A DNA stretch of 64,000 bases, taken from NCBI GenBank assembly GCA_040384805.1, contig JAZKIP010000008.1, positions 100,749 to 164,748 of the forward strand. The letters run 5' to 3'. The notes beneath the pieces were generated by a model. The model did not search any database and was not told the origin of the DNA. It saw only the letters and a list, made by a program, of their open reading frames with translations. Shown here in pieces: positions 4,657 to 47,062 of this stretch (positions within the stretch are counted from its first letter, which is position 1; every line of letters begins with the position of its first letter). Made by a program: the position numbers and the translations under genes. The stretch comes from Patescibacteria group bacterium (GTDB lineage Bacteria; Patescibacteriota; Minisyncoccia; Phycocordibacterales; UBA9973).

Positions 4657-5193
4657 TTATATCATATCTAAGTTCTTCACAACCCTTTCCAGCAAATATG
4701 GAAATTCCTTTGCGTTGAAATGCTTTTCGATATCAATTGTCTGCATTTCCACGCCTAATCCACGGGCAACTTTATCCACATCTTCAAGCGGAACATGAGG
4801 ATCATTCGCGGAAGCAAGAATTTCGAAACGCGGGCAATGTTTCTTTATAGTATCCCAATCAAAATCATCGCTGAAGAAAAAGGATTCTTCCAAGACTTTC
4901 CACCCAAGATCGTGAAGAAAAGGAGCACAGAGATATACCCGTTTGGCATGATGTCCTCGTTCAAGCATCCGCAATATCAATACAGCTCCAAGGCTATGCC
5001 CGATCAATATTGTATCGGGCCCTGTTTTGAAAGACGATACATCTGCAAGCCATGTATTTAAGTCAGGATAATCAGGATTGGACAACTGGGGAACGGTCGT
5101 TTCGACTCCCCTTTTCTCAAGTTCTGCCGCAAGCCATGGGAACCAATTTTCTTGGGGATTCCCTTCTGTACCATGGAAAATATATGCATTCAT
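4657..5193 (-). CDS. alpha/beta hydrolase, RBBP9/YdeN-like serine hydrolase
   Basis: IFHGTEGNPQENWFPWL plus the GHSLGA nucleophile elbow. Confidence 0.65.
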   Translation of the reverse strand: MNAYIFHGTEGNPQENWFPWLAAELEKRGVETTVPQLSNPDYPDLNTWLADVSSFKTGPDTILIGHSLGAVLILRMLERGHHAKRVYLCAPFLHDLGWKVLEESFFFSDDFDWDTIKKHCPRFEILASANDPHVPLEDVDKVARGLGVEMQTIDIEKHFNAKEFPYLLERVVKNLDMI

Positions 5194-5199
5194 AATTAA

Positions 5200-5994
5200 T
5201 TACGATACGCGCTTGCGGAACAAATATCCCGATACAGGAATGGCGATGATGATAATGACTATGCACCATACGGCCGCGATCCATGCATGATCGCCTACGG
5301 GCGTACCTACCATATAACCGCGCATCGCTTCGATCACATGAGTTACCGGCTGATTTTCAGCGAAGATCCGGAGACCTTTCGGCATGCCGTCGGTCGGAAC
5401 GAATGCGCTTGAGGCGAACGTAAGCGGAAAAACGAACATAAAGCCCATCCACTGGACCGCTTCGACGGATTTGGCAATGAGGCCGAGAATTGCCGAGAGC
5501 CATGAGAATGCAAGGGTAAAAAGGAGAAGCATCCCGAGAGCCATAAGCCATTCGGTGAATGTGGCCGTCGGTCGGAAACCGACAAGGAGACCGACCAAGA
5601 TCATGACGACCGAGGAAATAGTATTGCGCGCAAGATCCGCAACCACGTGACCGACCAGAACGGTCGAGCTTGCCATAGGCAACGACTTGAAACGGTCGAT
5701 GATTCCCCGCTTAAGATCCGCCGCTACGTTGATCGAGGTTGTTGTCGCGCCGAACGCCGCCATCTGAATGAGGATTCCAGCAACGAGGAAATTAACATAC
5801 GTCGTTCCTTCGGTATGAATAGCCCCGCCGAATACATATCGGAAAAGAAGCAGGAACATAATAGGCTGAAGAGCAAGCGACATCAACTGGTCGAGATTCT
5901 TGAAGATATGCGTGAGACTCCGCTTGATAAGAACGATACAATCGCTCACTACCCAATACAGCGACGAATGTTTTTTTGAAGAAGAATTATTCAT
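5200..5994 (-). CDS. ABC-2 type transporter permease
   Basis: Six-TM ABC-2 pattern; its start overlaps the upstream ATPase gene. Confidence 0.8.
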   Translation of the reverse strand: MNNSSSKKHSSLYWVVSDCIVLIKRSLTHIFKNLDQLMSLALQPIMFLLLFRYVFGGAIHTEGTTYVNFLVAGILIQMAAFGATTTSINVAADLKRGIIDRFKSLPMASSTVLVGHVVADLARNTISSVVMILVGLLVGFRPTATFTEWLMALGMLLLFTLAFSWLSAILGLIAKSVEAVQWMGFMFVFPLTFASSAFVPTDGMPKGLRIFAENQPVTHVIEAMRGYMVGTPVGDHAWIAAVWCIVIIIIAIPVSGYLFRKRVS

Positions 5995-6952
5995 TGTTTT
6001 TTATGTTAGTGCCTGTGTCAGTTTCATGACCGGTGAGATTGAGAAATACATCGTCAAGAGTCGGCTTATGGAGAGACATGCTTTCGATATCGATCCCCGC
6101 CGCTTCCATCGCATTGAGAATCTGCGTGACTTCTTTCACTCCTTTTTCGATCGGCACGATGATACTCTGATCAGCCGCGCGTACAGTCACAGACTTGCCG
6201 GCAAAGAGACGCTCGGCAGCCGGAAGATCGCTCTCTTGTGAGAGTATCAATTCAAGGCGATTCTTGCCGACCTTATTTTTCAGTTCATCGGCTGTTCCCT
6301 CGGCGATCACTTTTCCGTGATCGATGACAGCAATACGGTCTGCAAGCTTATCCGCTTCTTCGAGGTATTGGGTTGTCAGAAGAATCGTCGCTCCCTCTTT
6401 TTTAAGATCCTCTATGATCTCCCACATTGACATGCGGCTTCGCGGATCAAGCCCTGTCGTCGGCTCATCAAGAAATATGATCGGAGGAGTCGCCACGAGG
6501 CTCGCTGCAAGATCAAGCCGCCTGCGCATTCCTCCGGAATATGTCTTCGCCGCGCGGCCGGAAGCCTCGACGAGATCAAAACGCACCAGGAGTTCCTTTG
6601 CTCTTTCTTTGCTTTCCGCTTTGCTTAAATGATACAGGCGGCCCATCATTTCCAGATTCTCGCGGCCGGTAAGATATTCGTCGATCGCTGCGTATTGGCC
6701 GGTGAGTCCGATGATCGTGCGCACATCGTCCGCTTCTTTGACCACATCGAAGCCGTTGACTCGCACATCGCCACTATCGGGCTTCAAGAGAGTGCTTAAT
6801 ATCTTAACTGTCGTTGTTTTCCCTGCGCCATTGGGACCGAGTAGCGCAAGCATCGTGCCACGCTTGATGGAAAGATTGATGCCTTCGAGAACTTTTACAT
6901 CCTTGAAGGATTTCGTCAGATTAGTAATACTGATAGCGATATCGTCATTCAT
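5987..6952 (-). CDS. ABC transporter ATP-binding protein (DrrA-like)
   Basis: Walker A GPNGAGKTT, signature LSGGMRRRL, and Walker B IIFLDEPT. Confidence 0.9.
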   Translation of the reverse strand: MNDDIAISITNLTKSFKDVKVLEGINLSIKRGTMLALLGPNGAGKTTTVKILSTLLKPDSGDVRVNGFDVVKEADDVRTIIGLTGQYAAIDEYLTGRENLEMMGRLYHLSKAESKERAKELLVRFDLVEASGRAAKTYSGGMRRRLDLAASLVATPPIIFLDEPTTGLDPRSRMSMWEIIEDLKKEGATILLTTQYLEEADKLADRIAVIDHGKVIAEGTADELKNKVGKNRLELILSQESDLPAAERLFAGKSVTVRAADQSIIVPIEKGVKEVTQILNAMEAAGIDIESMSLHKPTLDDVFLNLTGHETDTGTNIKNNE

Positions 6953-36680: not shown

Positions 36681-37328
36681 CTAGGTTTTCGACATATTAC
36701 TAGCGTATGGACCACCAAGGAATTTCTGCAATTCCAAAAGTTCTATTTGCAAGGCGCCTAAATCAAGATCACGCTCTGCATATGTATAAATTTTCGTCAT
36801 TGGATCATAATTACGCAGATGCAAAGCATTGGTACCTCCTTTTTCATTTTTATCACCGATAGTGAGATCACTCACAACACGACGGTCAGCATCACTGTTT
36901 TTGTGTTTCGGATATTCTTCATTTATCCATTTCACCATTCTTTGGTCGTAATGATCAAGATCATTTCTAAAAGACTTATTTTGAAGCAAGACGAACATTG
37001 GTATCTCGATTACATCGGCTAGATCTTTACCTATTTGCATACCAATAGTATCAACAAGATATTGACCTTTCTTGTCTTTAGAAGACCATAGGAGCTTCGA
37101 CACATTTGCACAGTGGGTTAAAAAAGAGTGTATCGAAGAGAATGTCAGAAGAATATTACCTTCGCCTTTCTTACTAATGTTATCGAACGCAGCAAGCGCA
37201 AAGAGAATCTGCATACTGATTTCTCTCTGTGCTTGCATAATAATGTAGTTTTGTAATTCAGTTAATTCTGACACAGTTTTCATATCTGAATTATAGATCT
37301 TCTGATTTCTTTTATCAAAAAGTGACAT
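36681..37328 (-). CDS. hypothetical protein (third gene of a coupled operon)
   Basis: 3-nt gap to the upstream gene. Confidence 0.5.
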   Translation of the reverse strand: MSLFDKRNQKIYNSDMKTVSELTELQNYIIMQAQREISMQILFALAAFDNISKKGEGNILLTFSSIHSFLTHCANVSKLLWSSKDKKGQYLVDTIGMQIGKDLADVIEIPMFVLLQNKSFRNDLDHYDQRMVKWINEEYPKHKNSDADRRVVSDLTIGDKNEKGGTNALHLRNYDPMTKIYTYAERDLDLGALQIELLELQKFLGGPYASNMSKT

Positions 37329-37331
37329 ATC

Positions 37332-38750
37332 CTAAGCCTTACTTGCAGAAGGTTTTTCTCGTCCATCGACAACAATGATCGTTGGATGCTTTTTACCTTC
37401 TTTTTCTTCCTCTTCTTCCATTCTAAGAACTTCTTCAAGAACTTTACTCTTCCCTATGACCTGAACCACCACAAAATAACTTGCTTTTGCTTCTTCACTT
37501 TCTTCGTAAATTCTAGTTTGCTTCTCGTAACCTTGTCGAACATGACCCGATGTGAGCTTTACTTCGACAATAATTTTTTCCTTATGACCAGTGCTTAGTT
37601 TAAAATCAACTGGCCCCTGTCCAGCATTGGATTCTGGAGAAATATCTATATCTGACGATTCGCAATACAGAAGAGCAGTCGCATAGAAAAAGTGTCGTGC
37701 ATGGCTTTCATTAAGAGGCTCCTTTGAATCATTATAAAGGGAACGCCAGCCACCCTTGGTTTCAATAAATTTCTTGAAGGCATTAATAATTTTTTGTACG
37801 ATTTCTTCTAGATCTTCTTTTTTCTTAGGCTTTGTAGGGATTGAAAGAGGATTCGCTTTTACCAATTCCTTAGCTTTTTCCGGCCATAGATAGAGACCTG
37901 CAGGATCGCTCTCAAAATCATACGCTTCAGGATTGCATGCTTGATATGCAGCAACCACGGTACTGATTCTATCTTTTGTCTCAAGAAGATATCGTCGAAT
38001 CTCCGATTTCTTCGGTTTCTTCCCGTCCTTCTGGGTAAAACAGGCTGCAAGAATTGAATTAAATTTCTGCCTTAGCTCATCATTAAAAGCAGCAACAACA
38101 CTGATATCTTCAAAGCTGGTAGCGAGCGGCAAATCCCGAAGAATTCCCTGTGGAAGGAAAATAAGGGGTCCGTCTTTTAAAGGATGTTTCGCAAGGGTGT
38201 AATTATGCTCACAGGTCTTCTGTATAAAAATTTCTTTAATTTTAAGTTCTTTTGTCACTCTTTCAGAGTATGTATATATTCTATGTAGCAGTATACGAAT
38301 GAGCCCATCACTTAAACGGTCAGGTCCGAAATCTTCTTCAAAAAGTCCCATGACCTCAAAGATAGCTGGGTCATTTACACCCATTTTGATAAGTTCTTCA
38401 GCGGTTAACATTAAATGTCTAGCCAACTCAGGACCTATGGCTGAACCGTCGTCTCTTTTATTACCGTAACCTATACCAATTCCACGAACTTCACGGAGAA
38501 TCAATTTTTTATGCGCTGCTTCTCTTGCTTTCTTGTTTTCAGTGCGTAAGAGAGTTATAACACCTGAGAAATAAATCCGTACCTCAGCGAGTGCATCTTT
38601 AAATTCAGGTACCTTAGTCTTAGACAGAAGAAGAGAATCGACGAAAAATAAGCTATCAACCCCAATAACAGGGTTGAATGCTCCAGACTTTGCGTACGCA
38701 GAATCAGATATTCCAAAATATTCACTTGCCCGTTTAAGCTTCTGATTCAT
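37332..38750 (-). CDS. hypothetical protein with C-terminal PD-(D/E)xK nuclease-like motif
   Basis: CESSDID...GPVDFKL...IIVEVKL, i.e. an E...D...ExK arrangement. Confidence 0.5.
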   Translation of the reverse strand: MNQKLKRASEYFGISDSAYAKSGAFNPVIGVDSLFFVDSLLLSKTKVPEFKDALAEVRIYFSGVITLLRTENKKAREAAHKKLILREVRGIGIGYGNKRDDGSAIGPELARHLMLTAEELIKMGVNDPAIFEVMGLFEEDFGPDRLSDGLIRILLHRIYTYSERVTKELKIKEIFIQKTCEHNYTLAKHPLKDGPLIFLPQGILRDLPLATSFEDISVVAAFNDELRQKFNSILAACFTQKDGKKPKKSEIRRYLLETKDRISTVVAAYQACNPEAYDFESDPAGLYLWPEKAKELVKANPLSIPTKPKKKEDLEEIVQKIINAFKKFIETKGGWRSLYNDSKEPLNESHARHFFYATALLYCESSDIDISPESNAGQGPVDFKLSTGHKEKIIVEVKLTSGHVRQGYEKQTRIYEESEEAKASYFVVVQVIGKSKVLEEVLRMEEEEEKEGKKHPTIIVVDGREKPSASKA

Positions 38751-39059: not shown

Positions 39060-39800
39060 TTATCTATATCTCCGACCCCTTGCCATATAGCATGATATGT
39101 TAGTTAATTTAGATTTCCTTTATCTCCTATTTGCTAACTTAATCATATGGTACGGAAATCAAGAATCGACAAAGGAGGACTTTACTACCGTGTTTATAAC
39201 AAGGCATGTTGGGACAAAACTTTATTTGAGAATGAAGATGATTTCAGGATAGTAAAAGAAAAATTTTCAGAGGCAAAAAGTGCAACGAAAATGAGAATAC
39301 TTGCTTATTGCTTTATGCCAGATCACTTCTATCTTATTCTTTATCCCGTTAATGACGGTGATATGAGAAAGTTTATGCAACTTGCTATTGGCGCGCATAC
39401 GCACTGGTGGCATAGAATGCACAAAACATCTGGATCAGGTCCTATATATAAAGGCAGGTATAAATCTGAGATTATTCCAGAAGACCAGTTGTCTCAACAA
39501 ATAGAGGAAGTAGAAAGTTGCCCTGTAAGGGACAAGTGCGCAGAGACACCTGTGGAATATAAACACTCAAGTGCATCAGCACGCGTTGAGAAAGATTTTA
39601 TGCTGCTTACTAAGTAGCCATGAAGAAAATTTTTCATTTGACTGATTATCCATAACGTAGCATAATTAAACATATTCCCCCACTACACTTTCTAATTTTA
39701 TGATATATTCAGGATAGCCGAACATTTAAATTTTAAAAAAACTGGTTCTCCCGCGTAAAGATTCCTCCTCTATTATAGAGAGGAGGAATATAGACAACGG
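39060..39800 (+). mobile_element. possible IS200-like element with flanking hairpins (extent uncertain)
   Basis: tnpA-like gene, an AT-rich inverted repeat upstream, and a perfect hairpin attcctcctctat-tata-tagagaggaggaat at 39760..39792. Confidence 0.3.
39147..39617 (+). CDS. IS200/IS605-family (Y1 HUH) transposase-like protein / REP-associated tyrosine transposase-like
   Basis: HUH motif AHTHWWH, Tyr in IYKGRYKS, and an ILAYCFMPDHFYLIL core. Confidence 0.6.
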   Translation: MVRKSRIDKGGLYYRVYNKACWDKTLFENEDDFRIVKEKFSEAKSATKMRILAYCFMPDHFYLILYPVNDGDMRKFMQLAIGAHTHWWHRMHKTSGSGPIYKGRYKSEIIPEDQLSQQIEEVESCPVRDKCAETPVEYKHSSASARVEKDFMLLTK

Positions 39801-39975
39801 GGAACAAAACCGATATAGGCTATAGAGAGTCCGTATCATTAACTTACAAACTGGTGCTCAAACTTAAACTTGTGGGAAAATGATAGGCTCATCTCCTTTC
39901 AAAATACCCACGAGTTTAGATTCGTGGGTATTTTGTTCGGCAGGCGATATTACTATTAAAAACTGTTTTAAGCGT

Positions 39976-41247
39976 ATGACTACGTTAAAGGTGATGTGGA
40001 GGGTAGAGATCAGGAAAGTAAATGAGTTGGTTCCGTGGAGTGAAAATCCGCGGAAGATAACAAAGGAAGCTTTTAATAATTTGAAACGAAAGGTTGAAAG
40101 GCATGGTTTCCATAGCGTGATTGTGATCGATGTTGATAACACGATCATCTCTGGAAATCAACGAAAGGATGTACTTATTGAACTCGGAATCGATGAGGTG
40201 AACGTATTGGTACCGGACCGTAAGCTGACCGATGAAGAAAAAAGGAAAATCGCATTGGAAAGCAACATTAACGATGGCGAATGGGATTTTGAAAAATTGA
40301 AGTCATTTGATTTAGGAACATTGATGGATGTGGGTTTTGATGAAGACAGCCTGTCGAATATGTGGGCGGAAAATTTGGAAGCGGAAGATGATTCCTTTGA
40401 AGTCGAGAAAGAGCTTGCCGAGATTACCGAGACAACAACCAAGCTCGGCGACCTCATCATCATGGGCCCTCATCGGTTGATATGCGGGAATACGCTTGAT
40501 CCGGAAGTCCTTAAAAAGCTTTTCGGTGACGAGAGAGCATCGGTAATATACAGTGATCCTCCGTATAACATCTCGCTTGATTACAACAAAGGCATTGGCG
40601 GGAAGCAGCAGTATGGCGGAAACGTAAACGATGATCGATCATATACCGAATACAAGGAATTCTTGCGCCAAAGTATGGCCTGCGCTCTCTCCGTATCACA
40701 ACCCGATACGCACATGTTCTATTGGTCCGACCAGACATATATAGGGCTGATCCAAGAACTCTATCGCGAACTCGGGATAGAGAACAAGCGGGTATGCTTG
40801 TGGATCAAGAACTCGCAGAATCCTGTACCGGGCGTGGCATTCAATAAATGCTACGAACCGTGTACCTATGGACTGCGAGGGCATCCGTATATTGAAAAGA
40901 GCATTAACAATCTTAATGAAGTGATGAACAAAGACATCACGACGGGTAATGATTTGATGGAAGAGGCGTTAGATCATTTAGACTTATGGTTTGTTAAACG
41001 GCTTTCCGGTAAGGAGTACAGGCATGCGACCAGCAAGCCGCCGCGGCTGCATAACAAAGCGATACGTCGCTGTTCCAAAGTCGGGGATATTATTCTCGAT
41101 TCCTTCTCTGGATCGGCAAGTACCATGATTGCAGCACACCAATTGAAGCGAAGAGTATTCGCGGTCGAATTAGAACCAGCATTCTGTGATCTAGCTATTA
41201 AGAGATACGAAGCTCTGACTGGCGAGAAAGCAGAAATAATCCGATAA
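39976..41247 (+). CDS. ParB-like nuclease domain fused to N6-adenine/N4-cytosine DNA methyltransferase
   Basis: An N-terminal ParB-like motif run from ELVPWSENPRK to ISGNQR; motif IV SDPPYN and motif I DSFSGSASTM. The track's N-terminal extension overlaps a strong hairpin, so the start was taken at the ATG at 39976. Confidence 0.85.
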   Translation: MTTLKVMWRVEIRKVNELVPWSENPRKITKEAFNNLKRKVERHGFHSVIVIDVDNTIISGNQRKDVLIELGIDEVNVLVPDRKLTDEEKRKIALESNINDGEWDFEKLKSFDLGTLMDVGFDEDSLSNMWAENLEAEDDSFEVEKELAEITETTTKLGDLIIMGPHRLICGNTLDPEVLKKLFGDERASVIYSDPPYNISLDYNKGIGGKQQYGGNVNDDRSYTEYKEFLRQSMACALSVSQPDTHMFYWSDQTYIGLIQELYRELGIENKRVCLWIKNSQNPVPGVAFNKCYEPCTYGLRGHPYIEKSINNLNEVMNKDITTGNDLMEEALDHLDLWFVKRLSGKEYRHATSKPPRLHNKAIRRCSKVGDIILDSFSGSASTMIAAHQLKRRVFAVELEPAFCDLAIKRYEALTGEKAEIIR

Positions 41248-41252
41248 CGCCT

Positions 41253-41834
41253 ATGAAAAAAGAAAGAATTCATGAAGCTTTAATTGAACAGCTTAGGAAA
41301 GTGCCGATTTTGCAAGTTGCATGCGAGAAATTAAATGTTTCCAGAAATACGGTCTATACATGGAGGAAACAAGATAAAGAATTTCGTATTGCGATGGATA
41401 AAGCCTTTGCTGAAGGTGATGCGCTTGTTAATGATATGGCTGAAAGTCAGATGATAAGTCTTATGAGAAAAGGAAGCTATCCTGCGAATGCTTTTTGGCT
41501 TCGCGCACGACACCCGAAGTTTAAGAAAGACAATTCCGTTCATATAAAAGTTGCGCCAACAAAAAAATATATTCTTCCTATTACCACCACGGAAGCTTTC
41601 GACAAAGTCAGGCTCAGTAAGCTGCCGAAACAACTCCGTAAGAAAGTCATAAGAAAGGAAATGAAGCTCAGCGATGCTATGGGTGAGGTTTTCGACAAGA
41701 TCCATGAAGAAATGGGGATGGAAATGCCGAAGGATCTTAGAAAAATAAGCTTACCCTTAGGTAGCGTTCTCAAAACAATCTTAGAAGAAGATCAGGATCC
41801 TCATGAAGACGAGAACGGAATCGAAAGATTTTAA
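41253..41834 (+). CDS. HTH domain protein (phage-associated type)
   Basis: ACEKLNVSRNTVYTWRK helix-turn-helix. Confidence 0.4.
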   Translation: MKKERIHEALIEQLRKVPILQVACEKLNVSRNTVYTWRKQDKEFRIAMDKAFAEGDALVNDMAESQMISLMRKGSYPANAFWLRARHPKFKKDNSVHIKVAPTKKYILPITTTEAFDKVRLSKLPKQLRKKVIRKEMKLSDAMGEVFDKIHEEMGMEMPKDLRKISLPLGSVLKTILEEDQDPHEDENGIERF

Positions 41835-42637
41835 AAAGAAATCTTAAACTCTTCCTTAACGAATTCTAAAGTCTTCTGTTGATCCTGAAGCGATGCCTTC
41901 ACAAGCTGCGTGGTGAAGAGGCCTGTCTTGGCTTTCCATTTGGCATCCTTCGCATCAACCGCTTCGATCCATTGGATGCTGATGAGGTAATCGCAGTTGT
42001 CATTGTCGCTGTTTCGGAAGAGACCAGTCGATTTCAGAGGGAGATCCCGGAGAGATTTCCCGTTGTATCGGAATTCTTCAACCGGGACAGCCTTCCCTGT
42101 CACCCTTCCAACGCCGACATACCCGTGATTCTTGAGATATGCCACAACGATATCGTCCTTGTTAAGCGTCCTGATCTGATCGCTCCACTTCTTGTCCTGT
42201 CCTGCGGCCAGGAAGCCGTATCTCTTGCAGTCTTCCCAGAGACGGTTAGATGTGCGGTCTTGGCCGACATTGACGTAGTAGATGTCGTTTTTAAAGTCAA
42301 AGCCCGGGAGATCGTCGCGATAGAGGCTGTAGTGAGGCCTGAACTTCTTGGCGAAGTGGCCCGAGGATTTGTTGGTCAGAGTCCTGCCGAGTTTCCAGAT
42401 GAGGGTTTTCTCGATGAGGAAAGCTTCCCTCTCCGTGAGGTCTTTGGCGATAACCCGAATGATGGGCTGAAGTCCGAGTTTCTGGATGGCTTTGATCCGT
42501 TGCGACTTCTCCGAATCGCTGTCGTCTTTGAGATGAGCGTTCTTGCGATTGCCCTTCCCTTTGCCGTAGTAGAAATCCTCGAAGTTGCGGGGATCTATAT
42601 AGACGTAGACGTAATAGTCTTCATTCACGTTCTTCAT
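41831..42637 (-). CDS. GIY-YIG nuclease with a C-terminal domain of unassigned fold
   Basis: YYVYVYIDPRN...FYYGKGKGNRKNAH...E GIY-YIG core. The C-terminal ~140 aa (DDIVVAYLKNHGYVGVGRV) could not be assigned to any domain family by eye. The gene is GC-rich. Confidence 0.65.
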   Translation of the reverse strand: MKNVNEDYYVYVYIDPRNFEDFYYGKGKGNRKNAHLKDDSDSEKSQRIKAIQKLGLQPIIRVIAKDLTEREAFLIEKTLIWKLGRTLTNKSSGHFAKKFRPHYSLYRDDLPGFDFKNDIYYVNVGQDRTSNRLWEDCKRYGFLAAGQDKKWSDQIRTLNKDDIVVAYLKNHGYVGVGRVTGKAVPVEEFRYNGKSLRDLPLKSTGLFRNSDNDNCDYLISIQWIEAVDAKDAKWKAKTGLFTTQLVKASLQDQQKTLEFVKEEFKISF

Positions 42638-42644
42638 ACATCAT

Positions 42645-42926
42645 CTATGAATTTGAAGAAGGATCTTTCTTTGCGCCGTAATAATGGAAGCACAGGAGTA
42701 TCACTCCGAGGAAAGCGGCTCCGAATCCGAGATTGATTCCGTTTTGTCGGTCGCTCATAAGGCCGAGGTTGTTCACTCGTCCGCTTCCGATTATCTCCCC
42801 CATGAACTCCCGCTGAGGAACGGCAACCGAGGTGTCGAAGAAGAGTAGGAAATAGATACCTGTTGCTAATCCAAACAGAAGAAGAACAATACCTGTTCCC
42901 CACAAAAACGTAACGTCTTTATTCAT
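42645..42926 (-). CDS. small membrane protein
   Basis: Two TM helices. Confidence 0.4.
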   Translation of the reverse strand: MNKDVTFLWGTGIVLLLFGLATGIYFLLFFDTSVAVPQREFMGEIIGSGRVNNLGLMSDRQNGINLGFGAAFLGVILLCFHYYGAKKDPSSNS

Positions 42927-43253
42927 GCAAAATTCTTTTGCGTTTAGGAGTAATTACCGGTGATGAGACGCAAAAAGCCCACCACAGGTAGAGACCGAGG
43001 CCTCTCATATCCGTTTCCAGATACGGCGGATCACGCAACCCTGTGATGGGTTTTTTAAGCATGATCCGACTTTTGACCATATCCTTAGAAATTCCAAGGG
43101 GTTAGGTCGCTATTAAATTGTATCTACATAATACGATATTTTATCGTATTACTCTACCCTATCGCAGATCACTTTATTTGTTAAGGTAGTTACCAACATG
43201 TTGCCAACAGTTCATGTCTTAGCAAAAGGCTCTTTCTCTGTCATTAATTAAAT

Positions 43254-44573
43254 ATGGAAACACAATATATAAATAATCTTGGTGTTAAAACCGAAGTACC
43301 ACGCATAAAGGTTAAGTACGTTCTGTATGCTCGTAAATCAACAGAATCGGATGAGAAGCAAGCTCTATCAATTGAATCGCAAGTAAAAGAGATGCTCACT
43401 ATCGCCGATCGTGACAGTCTTGAAATTGTAGACATTAGGAGAGAATCACACTCGGCCAAAGAGTCTGGACAGAGACCAGTATTTAAAGAATTACTTGATG
43501 ATGTTCGTAGAGGTAGATATACAGGAATACTTACATGGGCACCTGATAGATTGAGCAGAAATGCAGGTGACCTCGGATCTGTCGTGGACCTTATGGATGA
43601 GAATAAGTTAATAGAGATTAGAACATACGGGCAACACTTTAAGAATTCACCCAATGAGAAATTCCTTTTAATGATTCTTTGTAGTCAAGCAAAACTTGAG
43701 AATGATAATAAAAGTATCAATGTGAAGCGAGGACTACGAACAAGATGTGAAATGGGATTAAGACCCGGCCCTGCTCTTTTCGGATATTTTAATGTAAAAC
43801 ATGCAGACAAGAAATGTCAGGTAATTCTTGATCCTGAACGAGCACATATCGCTAAGAAAATGTTTGAGAAAGTAGCCTACGAGAAATGGAGCGGTCGAAA
43901 GATATATCACTGGCTAAAATTTGATCTCAATTTAAAGACAAGGAACGGAAACAAAGGTTTAACTCTAGGAAATATTTATCTTATTCTCCAGAGTCCTTTC
44001 TATTACGGAGTCTTCGAGTATCCCCACAAAAGCGGAAACTTCTATAAAGGTAGACATGAACCTCTAATTACTAAGGAGTTATTTGACCAAGTACAACTAC
44101 AAGTTAAAAGCCAAGTTATTCGATCTGAAAGTAAAGAATTCGCCTTCACTAAATTAATGATATGTGGTCTATGCGATTCTGGTATATGTGCAGATGAGAA
44201 GTTTAAAAAACTTAAGAACGGAGGTGTAAATCGATATGTTTACTATGGATGTACTAAATCGAAAGATAAGAATTGTAAAGGAGGTTATATTGAAGAAAAA
44301 GAACTTATTAAACAATTTGAAGATTTGATTGAGATTATCAGTATTGATGAGATTGGAATAAAAGAAAGGATTAGAACCGAAGTTGAGAGAATAAAAAAAT
44401 TTAATAGTATGCTACTGGGAGTAAAAGATCAAGTCTGCGTAGAAGATATCGACATTAAAAACTACGCAAAGTATTTACTTCGAGAAGGAAAGGATATTGA
44501 AAAACGAGAATTATTGTCTTGCTTTAAAAGTAAGATAGAATTAAAAAATAAAGCTATTATTCTTATAAATTAG
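43254..44573 (+). CDS. large serine recombinase
   Basis: Resolvase catalytic region YARKSTESDEKQ, a recombinase domain, and a Cys-rich zinc ribbon. Confidence 0.9.
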   Translation: METQYINNLGVKTEVPRIKVKYVLYARKSTESDEKQALSIESQVKEMLTIADRDSLEIVDIRRESHSAKESGQRPVFKELLDDVRRGRYTGILTWAPDRLSRNAGDLGSVVDLMDENKLIEIRTYGQHFKNSPNEKFLLMILCSQAKLENDNKSINVKRGLRTRCEMGLRPGPALFGYFNVKHADKKCQVILDPERAHIAKKMFEKVAYEKWSGRKIYHWLKFDLNLKTRNGNKGLTLGNIYLILQSPFYYGVFEYPHKSGNFYKGRHEPLITKELFDQVQLQVKSQVIRSESKEFAFTKLMICGLCDSGICADEKFKKLKNGGVNRYVYYGCTKSKDKNCKGGYIEEKELIKQFEDLIEIISIDEIGIKERIRTEVERIKKFNSMLLGVKDQVCVEDIDIKNYAKYLLREGKDIEKRELLSCFKSKIELKNKAIILIN

Positions 44574-45348
44574 TCATTTCAACTTCTAGTAAGTTTAGAT
44601 TGTCAGCAATATCTTGATAACTATTAATACCAGTAATTAAGCGAATTTCATCTATGTATCGTGTTGTTAAACGAATATGAAAAATTGTAGCAATCATAAG
44701 TGCTTGGCGTAGATAGAAATTGCTCGCAACATCAGCTTCTTCTTTGCTCATATAACTTTTAACAATCATTGGACTGACGTGATTTAAACGACAACCCCAT
44801 ATATATGCTTGGCCAATACGAGAAGAATCAAAATCTTTTAAATGACCTGCTTCATGTAGTATCTCCACCATTTTATCTACGGATATTCCTGCCCAACTAT
44901 GTCGACTTTTTGCATCAGGACTAAGAGTATTATAATTTTTCTCAGCATCTTCGACATCGAGATTTAAATCATCATTTTGGTCGGCTGGGTTTTGTCCTAT
45001 GGATTTTAAGAATTCAATCTCATCATGAATTTCCTTAAATAAATGATTTTGGAACTGCACTGCCATTTTATCTTTTCCTTTCCAAAGCATATATTCAACA
45101 GAAATTCCGTATTCAATAATTTTTCTTGTTAAATCCAAACAACTAGAACCCGTGTCATCGTTGTTTGAAAGATAATAGATATCTCTCAGTGTTCCAAACG
45201 AAACTCTATAAATACCAAGGAGTACGTTTACAAAATTAGCATTCGATGGCGAACTAGCTCCAGCAAGTGGCTCAGTAACTTTTAGAGTCTTTTCAAGAAT
45301 ACCTTTTAATTTTTGTTCCATATTGTTAGTCAAAAATTCTTTTATCAC
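44563..45348 (-). CDS. hypothetical protein (operon partner)
   Basis: Overlaps the upstream gene by 23 nt. Confidence 0.5.
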   Translation of the reverse strand: MIKEFLTNNMEQKLKGILEKTLKVTEPLAGASSPSNANFVNVLLGIYRVSFGTLRDIYYLSNNDDTGSSCLDLTRKIIEYGISVEYMLWKGKDKMAVQFQNHLFKEIHDEIEFLKSIGQNPADQNDDLNLDVEDAEKNYNTLSPDAKSRHSWAGISVDKMVEILHEAGHLKDFDSSRIGQAYIWGCRLNHVSPMIVKSYMSKEEADVASNFYLRQALMIATIFHIRLTTRYIDEIRLITGINSYQDIADNLNLLEVEMTNL

Positions 45349-46609
45349 TATTTAACACTTCAGGCGGAAACTTTTTCCACTTTCCTTTTGTGGTAGAAAC
45401 CATATGTCTTAATATCATAGTGTCGCCAGCATCAGAATCAAAGGTATCAGAAGAATCGATGGGTTTACCTTCTTTAACAAATTTTTTAATTTCTTCAGAT
45501 ACTGCTTTTTCTGCTTCAGGATTAATTTTATCTGTGCCATCGAATTTTCTAATATGATCCTTTATGTTTCTCCAGGATTCTGACATATATTTATCCCATA
45601 ATTGAGTCGTTAAAAATGATAGATCATCGGGTGGGCATGGTGCAAATACTACTGATCCTCTATTTTTAACTTCATCAGGTAATGTTTCGTAATGAGAATC
45701 TAATTTAGAAAAATCACTTTTCAAATCTGTACCTGAAATGAATGTTTGATCAGTGCGCATAAAAATAGGTGCGAGTGCTATATGTATCTTATCACTCGAG
45801 GTGAATATATTACAAAATGGAAGATAATATAAGTATGCAATATCAACCTTATGCGTTGCAGGATGACGAAACGCTTCAAAAAGCTTAGCTGCAGTTCCCA
45901 TATAATAGAACAGATCAATAGAAAGAACATATGAAAAGTAAGGTGCGTATTCTCTTATAGGCTTACATCCGTCTTTTTCCCATTCCTTTAAAATTTTTTC
46001 TTGTGCTGTTGGTAAAAGTCCCATTTGCGACATCCACGCAACAAATGGTGCTTTTTCTTTAATCATATCAACTATTCCATCAACTTTTTCTTTTAGTTCT
46101 TGGAAAGTTTTCGGCTTACCTACCAGATCGAACATCTTTTGGAAACCTTCGTAGTTTTCTTCTTTCATCTCTGATAATTCTTGCCGCCATTCTTTAGCCT
46201 CATTTCTTTCTATTTCTAAAAATTGTTTTTTCTCCCAACGATGAGCAGCTTCCACTTCGGGAGGTTCTTGAAATATTACTCCTGTTTTACCACCAAGCTC
46301 AACATATTCTCCGTAAGAAATTACTGGTCTACCTGACATTTCAATTTTAGCTTTATTCATAAGCTCACTTGCTATTAGACTTCTGTGATGAACATTCACA
46401 CAACCCATATCAGGAGTTTTGTGTGCAATACTACCTACAATATCTTCAGGTGTTCTACCTAAACGAACTTCTTTTTCAAGATCAGCTAGAGTCTCCACAA
46501 AAAATAATGGTGTTATATTTGTGATGAAGAAATTTTCAAGCCACATGGATTCGTCTGCGCTCAATCCTTGTAATGCTGATTTATCAAATATAAGTGTTGG
46601 CCCTGTCAT
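45326..46609 (-). CDS. hypothetical protein
   Basis: 427-aa ORF with no recognisable motif. The N-terminus (TLIFDKSALQGLS) bears a weak, unassigned resemblance to a PIN-type start (interpretive reading, not a motif match). Confidence 0.45.
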   Translation of the reverse strand: MTGPTLIFDKSALQGLSADESMWLENFFITNITPLFFVETLADLEKEVRLGRTPEDIVGSIAHKTPDMGCVNVHHRSLIASELMNKAKIEMSGRPVISYGEYVELGGKTGVIFQEPPEVEAAHRWEKKQFLEIERNEAKEWRQELSEMKEENYEGFQKMFDLVGKPKTFQELKEKVDGIVDMIKEKAPFVAWMSQMGLLPTAQEKILKEWEKDGCKPIREYAPYFSYVLSIDLFYYMGTAAKLFEAFRHPATHKVDIAYLYYLPFCNIFTSSDKIHIALAPIFMRTDQTFISGTDLKSDFSKLDSHYETLPDEVKNRGSVVFAPCPPDDLSFLTTQLWDKYMSESWRNIKDHIRKFDGTDKINPEAEKAVSEEIKKFVKEGKPIDSSDTFDSDAGDTMILRHMVSTTKGKWKKFPPEVLNSDKRIFD

Positions 46610-46694
46610 AAACCTATTTTAACACTTATGATTAAGTTAAACTAAAAACACCTTAATTAGGTGCTTTTAGTTTTAGATATAGTTTAGATATTTA

Positions 46695-46913
46695 TTATTT
46701 GAGATTCTTGCGAGCCTGTTTCATAATCTTTTCTCGACCCTCGCTTGGATCTACTTTCGTTGCAGCAGCAATAAGAGCTTCTTTCACTGCTTGTTTCTTC
46801 TCATCAGGAAACTCTTTCTGTAGTTGCTTTACCGCATAATCAACTTCATATTTTTCTTTAAAGCTAATTAGATAACTATCTGGTTTACCAGTTTTCTTTT
46901 TATTGTCTGCCAT
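46695..46913 (-). CDS. DUF3606 domain protein
   Basis: The EKYEVDYAVKQLQKEF...QAVKEALIAAATKV pattern. Confidence 0.5.
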   Translation of the reverse strand: MADNKKKTGKPDSYLISFKEKYEVDYAVKQLQKEFPDEKKQAVKEALIAAATKVDPSEGREKIMKQARKNLK

Positions 46914-46991
46914 AATTTCTATATTATACCACAGAACTAAAGCTAGTTTCTAAACGACGTATCTCGAGCGCGATAACTGCGCTCTTGTTTG

Positions 46992-47062
46992 CTGCCGGTC
47001 AGGGACTCGAACCCCAATACCATCCTCCAGAGGGATGTGTCCTACCATTAGACGAACCGGCA
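46992..47062 (-). tRNA. tRNA-Gln (anticodon CTG)
   Basis: Manual cloverleaf: acceptor TGCCGGT/ACCGGCA with U1-A72 and G73, D arm GTCT/GGAC, anticodon loop CTCTGGA, and T loop TTCGAGT. Confidence 0.85.

Follow-up and report, generated by a model that had tools for sequence, protein, structure and literature searches.

A predicted stand-alone type IV endonuclease with a CMoRE-type GIY-YIG head and an EVE/YTH-like sensor, carried as cargo on a compact Patescibacteria element

The stretch of DNA analysed here (the window) comprises 64,000 nt of the Patescibacteria contig JAZKIP010000008.1 (assembly GCA_040384805.1, positions 100,749-164,748 of the forward strand), and the gene under study encodes a 268-aa GIY-YIG nuclease at 41831..42637 (-). 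On the basis of Pfam, PADLOC, PDB and fold matches this protein is a predicted type IV enzyme of two domains: a GIY-YIG catalytic domain of the CMoRE/PD-T4-3 type (residues ~7-99; 42341..42619, -), and a C-terminal sensor domain (residues ~119-266; 41840..42283, -) modelled with an EVE/YTH-like fold of the PUA superfamily. To its left lie a fusion of a ParB-like domain with an N6_N4 DNA methyltransferase (39976..41247, +, with an alternative upstream ATG at 39880) and a 193-aa helix-turn-helix protein resembling small terminase subunits (TerS-like; 41253..41834, +). To its right follow a small membrane protein of 93 aa (42645..42926, -; from the listing of open reading frames (ORFs), phrog_8032 at 2.7e-6), a LOOT RNA with a 3' extension (42970..43108, -) and a large serine recombinase (43254..44573, +; Resolvase, Recombinase and Zn_ribbon_recom domains). 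An earlier interpretation of the region, made by eye and referred to below as the sequence-only reading, had already recognised the 268-aa GIY-YIG protein, and the family matches bear this out.

The catalytic head matches the Pfam family LEM-3_GIY-YIG (1e-9), the PADLOC model PD-T4-3 (1e-12) and the PDB entries 9u75 (5e-8) and 9u7u, with the PD-T4-3 hidden Markov model covering nuclease residues 7-94 only. When a profile built from 49 homologues of the window nuclease was aligned with CMoRE, taken in full length from a plasmid of E. coli O157, the head was recovered at an hhalign probability of 97.7%, with 43% identity over 93 columns. CMoRE was also the top fold match (8.5e-7) when the full-length protein was searched with Foldseek. 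Using the definitions of the GIYxY-YIG motif, the catalytic Arg and Glu and the acidic loop given in the CMoRE paper (PMC12923530), the head residues Y9-x-Y11...Y23 (GIYxY-YIG), R31, H35, E76 and N89 were found to be invariant in the 49 homologues, and Y9, Y11, Y23, R31 and E76 align with CMoRE Y17, Y19, Y31, R39 and its Glu. An acidic loop, D38-D39-S-D41-S-E43, is likewise invariant in this set and occupies the aligned site of the CMoRE DDDD loop, with a length 8 residues shorter. CMoRE itself is a single-protein type IV enzyme that degrades DNA containing 5-hydroxymethylcytosine (5hmC) or glucosyl-5hmC (Liu et al. 2026, PMC12923530); its acidic loop is autoinhibitory, and deletion of the loop yields a toxic enzyme (PMC12923530). 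The head furthermore matches jumbo-phage genes annotated as homing nucleases at 30-41% identity, and these matches are confined to the head.

The C-terminal half of the nuclease had fitted no domain that could be named by eye. Consistent with this, no Pfam family was detected at E<=0.1 over residues ~119-268, nor any NCBIfam or PHROG family over residues 119-268. The AlphaFold model of the domain, however, has a pLDDT (predicted local distance difference test) of about 90, both within the full protein and alone, and displays a beta-alpha-beta-alpha-beta4 pseudobarrel with the order E-H-E-H-E-E-E-E(-H). When the sensor alone was compared with the PDB by Foldseek, the best match was VcaM4I, an EVE-HNH modification-dependent endonuclease (1.1e-4), followed by YTH domains (Mmi1, YTHDF2, YTHDC1) and the stand-alone EVE proteins PH1033, MJECL36 and Atu2648, all at a Foldseek probability of ~1.00 and template-modelling (TM) scores of 0.4-0.55. 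The full-length fold search also listed THYN1 bound to 5-methylcytosine (5mC) DNA, and EVE and ASCH proteins are among the viral-library matches of the sensor. At the profile level, Pfam EVE was reached below threshold in 3 of 16 homologous domains (best E 0.0036; relatives at 16.9-17.5 bits against a cut-off of 23). A sensor shared with CMoRE, as suggested by the full-length Foldseek alignment over 242 columns, was also considered; this candidate fell when the sensor was searched alone. As modelled, the window nuclease thus combines a head of the CMoRE type with a sensor of another kind, EVE/YTH-like. The sequence-only reading had speculated that the C-terminal half might be a reader of modified DNA, the opposite outcome being a fold that does not bind DNA. 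An EVE/YTH-like fold was found, and the speculation holds at the level of fold and architecture, from the VcaM4I, YTH and EVE matches together with the defence fusions described below; at the biochemical level it stays a prediction.

The sensor occurs well beyond this nuclease. An exhaustive HMMER search with the sensor returned 818 relatives at 50% clustering; the domain lies at the C or N terminus, inside the protein or by itself, with fusion partners including TIR, ADP-ribosylglycohydrolase, KAP NTPase, GmrSD and AAA_5/McrB-like ATPase domains, a PLD (DrmC-like) nuclease and an HSDR_N/type IIG-like (PD-(D/E)XK-like) nuclease. Residues N123, R132, W134, D136, Y167, Y173, D/E216 and W223 are among those conserved over all of these fusion architectures, an aromatic and polar set of the kind expected for a putative ligand pocket. 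Both profiles of the PADLOC candidate PDC-S11 match the sensor by their C-terminal 150 positions (2.7e-36 and 4.9e-25). Bell, Wolf and Koonin (2020, PMC7641849) recorded fusions of EVE with GIY-YIG domains among the putative enzymes of type IV, and the modular reuse of the sensor matches the EVE-domain pattern described by these authors.

The nuclease family is large, comprising 1,332 clusters at E<=1e-3 (90% identity clusters), and very conserved, with 62-83% identity among the best 120. Its distribution was surveyed in a pattern-limited scan of 185,579 species genomes, with one genome per species; with 209 copies found, the family is rare and patchy. The hosts are Bacteroidota, Patescibacteria, Peregrinibacteria, Proteobacteria, Planctomycetota, Chloroflexota, Acidobacteriota, Nitrospirota and DPANN archaea. 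The copies in this distribution are 51-70% identical, and over the family as a whole the identity is 51-83%, DPANN archaea included. Because this conservation extends over the full length of the protein, the comparison indicates strong purifying selection on both nuclease domains.

Neighbouring genes were counted in the best 80 nuclease loci from the species genomes; labels such as L013 or L118 denote loci used for comparison. A ParB-methyltransferase homologue lies within 10 kb of the nuclease in only three of these loci (L013, L043 and, weakly, L038). Clustering of the three nearest genes per side gave no family in more than 4 of the 80 loci, and a Pfam scan of 146 immediate nuclease neighbours gave no family more than three times (HsdM_N, 2/146). 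The copy in Flavobacterium ovatum sits among metabolic genes and that in Draconibacterium adjoins an integrase, a DUF1016 nuclease and putAbiC, with no methyltransferase within 8 kb of either. Since the nuclease neighbourhoods elsewhere show no recurrent methyltransferase, the methyltransferase is not a partner of the nuclease; this is in agreement with the report that PUA-nuclease enzymes are rarely found near methyltransferases (Lutz et al. 2019, PMC6765204). The functional relationship suggested by the sequence-only reading was consequently not sustained, considering the 3/80 co-occurrence, the lack of a recurrent neighbour among these loci and the fact that the two genes are not directly adjacent in the window. 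Still, the pair is not confined to this contig, as the two genes co-occur in a few related Patescibacteria elements.

A separate observation concerns three Chloroflexota loci (L063, L065 and L079), in which the same two genes flank the nuclease, ~300 aa upstream and ~935 aa downstream. The downstream gaps are -4 to +5 nt, and the arrangement may represent a lineage-specific multi-gene context.

The element shared by the related Patescibacteria loci accounts for the genes around the nuclease in the window. The closest nuclease relatives (70-83% identity, Patescibacteria) share a small element with the order serine recombinase; divergently, a LOOT RNA and one or two variable genes; and convergently, (TerL,) a TerS-like gene and the ParB-methyltransferase, TerL denoting the large terminase subunit. 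It is present at 39976-44573 of the window and at L004, L007, L013, L092, L100, L118, L126, L135, L152, L165, L169, L172 and L182, measures ~4-6 kb without cargo and contains no structural phage genes. Of 16 mapped elements, 15 have a methyltransferase homologue at this place, and in 7 a large-terminase gene follows the TerS-like homologue. Recombinase homologues 52-78% identical lie 136-290 nt from LOOT in many loci, and the serine recombinase is the element's integrase. Within the shared loci the nuclease is 75-83% identical, versus 45-51% for the methyltransferase, 37-51% for the TerS-like protein and 54-69% for the recombinase.

The slot was further examined in 120 additional LOOT loci, collected by a metagenome scan with a LOOT sub-family pattern. 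None of the 120 carries the nuclease, while at least 11 of them carry the methyltransferase. The recombinase lies 136-290 nt from LOOT in 19 of the 68 loci with enough upstream sequence, and the convergent pair of TerS-like and methyltransferase genes is present in 11 of the 43 with enough downstream sequence. Between LOOT and the TerS-like gene there are 0.7-4.7 kb, filled by genes that are unrelated to one another and often code for small membrane or secreted proteins. The methyltransferase is therefore part of the element backbone, and the nuclease together with the small membrane-protein gene is one interchangeable cargo. A small membrane protein is encoded directly upstream of the nuclease, at a gap of 3-7 nt, in L003 (7626-7997), L004 (7692-7997) and the window (42645-42926). 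The three proteins are non-homologous, one being of the Imm_superinfect/SHOCT type and one having a zinc-ribbon-like N terminus, and the window protein gave no homologue in related loci by tblastn. The element could be satellite-like or a minimal integrative element. Its ends were not found: a search around the island (36-47.4 kb) gave no direct repeats of the att kind.

The fusion at 39880/39976..41247 (+) is indeed a ParB-methyltransferase, as the sequence-only reading had it, with both a methyltransferase and a ParB-like profile matching. The methyltransferase part (~40504-41220) reaches 84.5 bits with Pfam N6_N4_Mtase (cut-off 26.7; 1.3e-23) and 2.6e-50 with PADLOC MTase_II. The ORF matches PHROG phrog_498 over its full length at 4e-80, and the ParB-like part (~39997-40425) matches phrog_620 at 3.6e-23, with Pfam ParB_N staying below its cut-off on the fusion protein (17.5 versus 26.3 bits, E 0.0043). 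The start previously chosen at 39976 (M33 of the longer ORF) coincides with the beginning of the homologue alignments. The enzyme is of the beta class, motif IV DPPY ('IYSDPPYNI') preceding motif I ('FSGSAST'), and a methyltransferase of this DPPY type probably modifies adenine at N6 (N6-methyladenine, m6A). In PHROG, the TerS-like protein hits small terminase subunit families (6.5e-7 and 8e-7), and its matches to the Pfam families HTH and Sf6_terminase are weak.

Taken as a whole, the nuclease gene is read here, with a probability of about 0.68, as a stand-alone modification-dependent (type IV) endonuclease predicted to act against phage or other invading DNA and carried as cargo of the element. 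The protein is best placed, as a member so far uncharacterised, in the known, predicted EVE-GIY-YIG class of type IV enzymes. In the proposed mechanism, the EVE/YTH-like PUA domain at the C terminus would recognise a modified base in foreign DNA, the base probably being flipped into the aromatic pocket of the sensor. The GIY-YIG head, for which the homology to CMoRE was described above, would then cut the DNA, and the short acidic loop may hold the head in check while the host's own, unmodified DNA is bound, as in CMoRE. No partner gene would be required. The backbone methyltransferase most likely modifies the DNA of element or host to ends of its own, a mark that the nuclease then has to tolerate. 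A C5-methyltransferase stands beside the same cassette in the relative represented by L007-L009. From the presence of a DPPY-type methyltransferase here and of a C5-methyltransferase in the relative, a target other than these two marks in their sequence contexts is inferred, which points weakly towards hypermodified bases, such as a hypermodified pyrimidine of the kind that CMoRE attacks.

Several observations weigh against this assignment. The nuclease family is known from sequence and models alone, and the head and linker of the window protein were modelled poorly (pLDDT 35-70). The fold similarity of the sensor is only moderate, the TM scores given above being accompanied by 10-15% identity; Pfam EVE (PF01878) gave no match for the window protein and stayed below its curated threshold in relatives, and the sensor profile gave chance-level matches only, and no solved structure, against PDB sequences. 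Nor was a resemblance to the CMoRE sensor detected: the two align at an hhalign probability of 1.5%, and CMoRE falls outside the top 50 fold matches of the isolated sensor. As the two sensors show no detectable similarity, the specificity of CMoRE is not transferable to the window nuclease. To our knowledge no hypermodified Patescibacteria phage has been described. The fusion of the sensor to TIR and other non-nuclease effectors makes a signalling or abortive-infection mode possible, and EVE and YTH domains also read modified RNA (PMC6765204, PMC7641849).

The main alternative mode is abortive infection, by the same sensor that drives TIR effectors: phage-derived modified nucleic acid or a modified nucleotide would be sensed, and non-specific cutting by the GIY-YIG head would kill the cell. 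The sensor is also fused to TIR, ADP-ribosylglycohydrolase and KAP NTPase, effectors that do not act on the sensed DNA, and the toxicity of CMoRE after removal of its autoinhibitory loop (PMC12923530) is matched here by the presence of a similar loop. However, neither modified DNA nor 5hm-dCTP triggered the cutting of ordinary DNA by CMoRE, whose defence is direct (PMC12923530), and the sensor is found equally on GmrSD and McrB-like modules, both of them classical type IV machineries that act directly. This mode is accordingly considered unlikely, albeit the best placed of the alternatives.

A selfish origin was considered next to it, in which a homing-type GIY-YIG endonuclease spreads via nuclease-free alleles and the C-terminal domain is a mere DNA-binding module. 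The jumbo-phage matches annotated as homing nucleases (30-41% identity), the solitary gene in variable insertion contexts, the patchy spread over phyla and the atypical GC content here would all suit such an element. Yet these phage matches cover the head only, the closest characterised head belongs to a defence enzyme, and the C-terminal domain is PUA/EVE-like, common to TIR, GmrSD and McrB-like proteins, and not NUMOD, zinc-finger or helix-turn-helix. With the 51-83% full-length conservation over phyla, and apparently strong purifying selection on both domains, homing is judged a very improbable explanation. A housekeeping or RNA role, in which the sensor reads modified RNA (e.g. tRNA) or a damaged DNA base and the protein serves RNA turnover or repair, is given just as little weight. 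EVE and YTH domains are classically RNA readers (PMC6765204, PMC7641849), and the Pfam match of the head is to a LEM-3-like repair family; against this stands a family that is rare and patchy in the pattern-limited scan (209/185,579 species genomes), is carried on mobile elements or islands and shares its sensor with partners that are defence effectors. The least credible reading is a classical restriction-modification pair in which the GIY-YIG enzyme cuts an unmodified site and the ParB-methyltransferase protects the host: GIY-YIG type II restriction enzymes do exist, and the methyltransferase lies 0.6 kb off here and also stands in several related Patescibacteria loci, but only 3 of the 80 species genomes have it near the nuclease, the immediate neighbours include no recurrent methyltransferase family (HsdM_N, 2/146), the Flavobacterium and Draconibacterium copies have no methyltransferase within 8 kb, the nuclease is missing from all 120 LOOT loci, at least 11 with methyltransferase, and in shared loci the methyltransferase, at 45-51% identity, is by far the less conserved of the two, the nuclease being 75-83% identical.

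The local gene layout required some revision. The nuclease and TerS-like genes share their stop codons in TTAA at 41831-41834, giving a 4-nt convergent overlap. Such an overlap had been reported in the sequence-only reading and is real, but the overlapping gene is the TerS-like one at 41253..41834, which had been overlooked, and not the methyltransferase. Neither does the region form a single nuclease/methyltransferase interval, as 42645..42926 (-) is the separate gene for the 93-aa membrane protein. It precedes the nuclease gene on the minus strand, at a gap of 7 nt, and the two probably form one transcript. A 285-aa ORF at 41879-42736 (+), antisense to the nuclease, was rejected as a gene, being most likely a shadow of the nuclease gene with its high GC3 (GC at third codon positions).

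The description of the nuclease gene as GC-rich for its surroundings proved accurate. Its GC and GC3 are 0.497 and 0.66, compared with 0.392 and 0.376 for the TerS-like gene, 0.345 and 0.275 for the recombinase and a GC of 0.426 for the whole window. Among 90 homologous loci, the GC of the nuclease gene tracks that of the flanks (r = 0.81), at a mean of 4 points below them. Because the gene is GC-rich here, though genes of the family average below their flanks, the window copy is unusual for its family and looks recently imported from a GC-richer source.

The LOOT RNA (Rfam RF03000) lies between the recombinase gene and the operon of membrane protein and nuclease. The covariance-model match at 42990-43108 (-) scores 77.9 bits against a gathering score of 46.4 and covers the full model (positions 1-121). 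LOOT occupies the same position in L003 (7444-7562), L004 (7504-7623), L007 (7813-7935), L009 (3251-3373) and L013 (9316-9438). In the 3' extension of the window copy, the strand GUGGUGGG (~42976-42983) pairs with CCCAUCAC inside the motif (~43030-43040), and is followed by a U-run at ~42970-42974, with the next start codon at 42926. The additional helix is 8 bp long, is absent from the Rfam model and links the apical part of LOOT to the 3' segment. Correspondingly, in 117 distinct LOOT copies an in-motif segment, e.g. CCCAUCAU, pairs with the GUGGUGGG segment, which lies just beyond the end of the Rfam model and ~20 nt past the search pattern. The extra duplex exceeds shuffled controls in stability (median z = -3.0), and compensatory changes are seen at three helix positions over the 117 copies (C-G/U-A; A-U/C-G/G-C); the helix register was chosen for maximal pairing, which inflates the percentage paired and not the compensatory changes. 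A U-run follows the extra helix in 88% of the copies, the next ORF beginning a few tens of nt further on, and a terminator-like site was called at 42992-42978 of the window. By these features the extra helix and U-run resemble a terminator linked to the folding of LOOT, which may therefore serve the cargo slot as a leader acting in cis; alternatively, LOOT may be a small RNA that ends in a terminator of its own. A role as a leader specific to the nuclease was discarded, the nuclease occurring in 0 of the 120 further LOOT loci.

From these observations two linked readings were put together, which as a joint proposal are tentative and more doubtful than not. In the first, the very conserved GIY-YIG/EVE-like family and the wider family with the PDC-S11 module may read a modification unlike the known type IV targets, one possibility being a hypermodification in phages of Patescibacteria, DPANN archaea and Bacteroidota. 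The sensor would in that case be a general alarm with nuclease, TIR, PLD, GmrSD and McrB-like outputs. In the second, LOOT would act in cis as a riboswitch-like gate for cargo, and may be a terminator-coupled leader gating the swappable slot of a previously undescribed compact integrative element of Patescibacteria, with the window nuclease as one of the cargoes.

Further features were observed in the surroundings of these elements. In L004, a reverse transcriptase (RVT_1) and a bAvd gene stand beside the recombinase (4735-6136), with a 1,662-aa protein beyond; the arrangement looks like a diversity-generating retroelement. Just left of the methyltransferase in the window, 39147-39617 (+) encodes a 156-aa protein with an IS200-like Y1 transposase domain (Y1_Tnp, 1.6e-6), and an imperfect inverted repeat with 27-nt arms follows this gene at 39745-39805. 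The same AT-rich island contains at 36681-38750 (-) a pair of genes for proteins of 215 and 472 aa, the latter matching phrog_30194 over its full length (4.8e-90) and the PADLOC candidate PDC-M36A weakly (1e-6), and this pair may be a further defence-type cassette. On the right, a DUF5677 protein (261 aa) is followed by proteins of 427 and 72 aa with no family match (44563-46913, -), up to a tRNA-Gln gene (46991-47062, -). The island keeps a GC of 0.32-0.37 as far as about 47.5 kb, beyond which the value climbs to about 0.5.

The analysis provides a reasoned function for a large family (>1,300 clusters at 90% identity) whose members carry no label beyond 'GIY-YIG nuclease family protein' at present. 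The recombination of a CMoRE-type head with an EVE-like sensor would exemplify the module-swapping that yields new type IV enzymes, and the members are small single-chain candidate reagents for the detection of modified bases. The viruses of Patescibacteria and DPANN archaea, and the DNA modifications there, are almost unknown territory, and the presence of such genes on compact elements of these hosts hints at modified phage genomes among them. The orphan LOOT RNA, in turn, gains a concrete and testable genomic role. Experimental effort would be best spent on sensor specificity and on what LOOT does.

Among the known systems, CMoRE/PD-T4-3 (PDB 9u75, 9u7u, 9u7z) is likewise encoded by a single gene of similar size (257 versus 268 aa here). 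The two have in common a homologous N-terminal head that carries the GIYxY-YIG tyrosines and the catalytic Arg/Glu, with an acidic loop at the same place, a flexible linker between head and C-terminal sensor, and a single-component organisation, the window family having no recurrent neighbour in the 80 species genomes. They differ in the C-terminal domains, which have no detectable relationship, the PD-T4-3 model matching the head only, and in the length of the acidic loop, shorter here by 8 residues. The VcaM4I/TspA15I group (EVE-HNH) similarly combines an EVE-like sensor of the PUA superfamily with a small nuclease and has no cognate methyltransferase. In the window protein, however, the nuclease is an N-terminal GIY-YIG domain, whereas the HNH domain of VcaM4I is C-terminal; the window sensor is 11-12% identical and below the Pfam EVE threshold, and the activity of the window family is predicted only. 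Of the features of the wider class of EVE/YTH sensor-nucleases, the window family shows the pseudobarrel fold as modelled, a sensor serving multiple effectors and no obligatory methyltransferase.

With PADLOC PDC-S11 the nuclease has the sensor module in common, profile positions 209-356 of 358 being matched. The N-terminal ~200 profile positions are unmatched, and proteins of that length bear PLD/DrmC-like or TIR heads; judged from these profile matches, the window nuclease shares the PDC-S11 module and is not a PDC-S11 member. It also differs from GIY-YIG homing endonucleases of the I-TevI type, in having an EVE-like C-terminal domain and no zinc-finger, NUMOD or helix-turn-helix Pfam module. 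The methyltransferase, finally, has the same architecture as the ParB-methyltransferase fusions of phages and plasmids (phrog_498), and its gene stands directly upstream of a TerS-like gene, in relatives also upstream of TerL; in contrast to the phrog_498 fusions beside phage terminase genes, it is here part of a 4-6 kb element that is free of structural phage genes.

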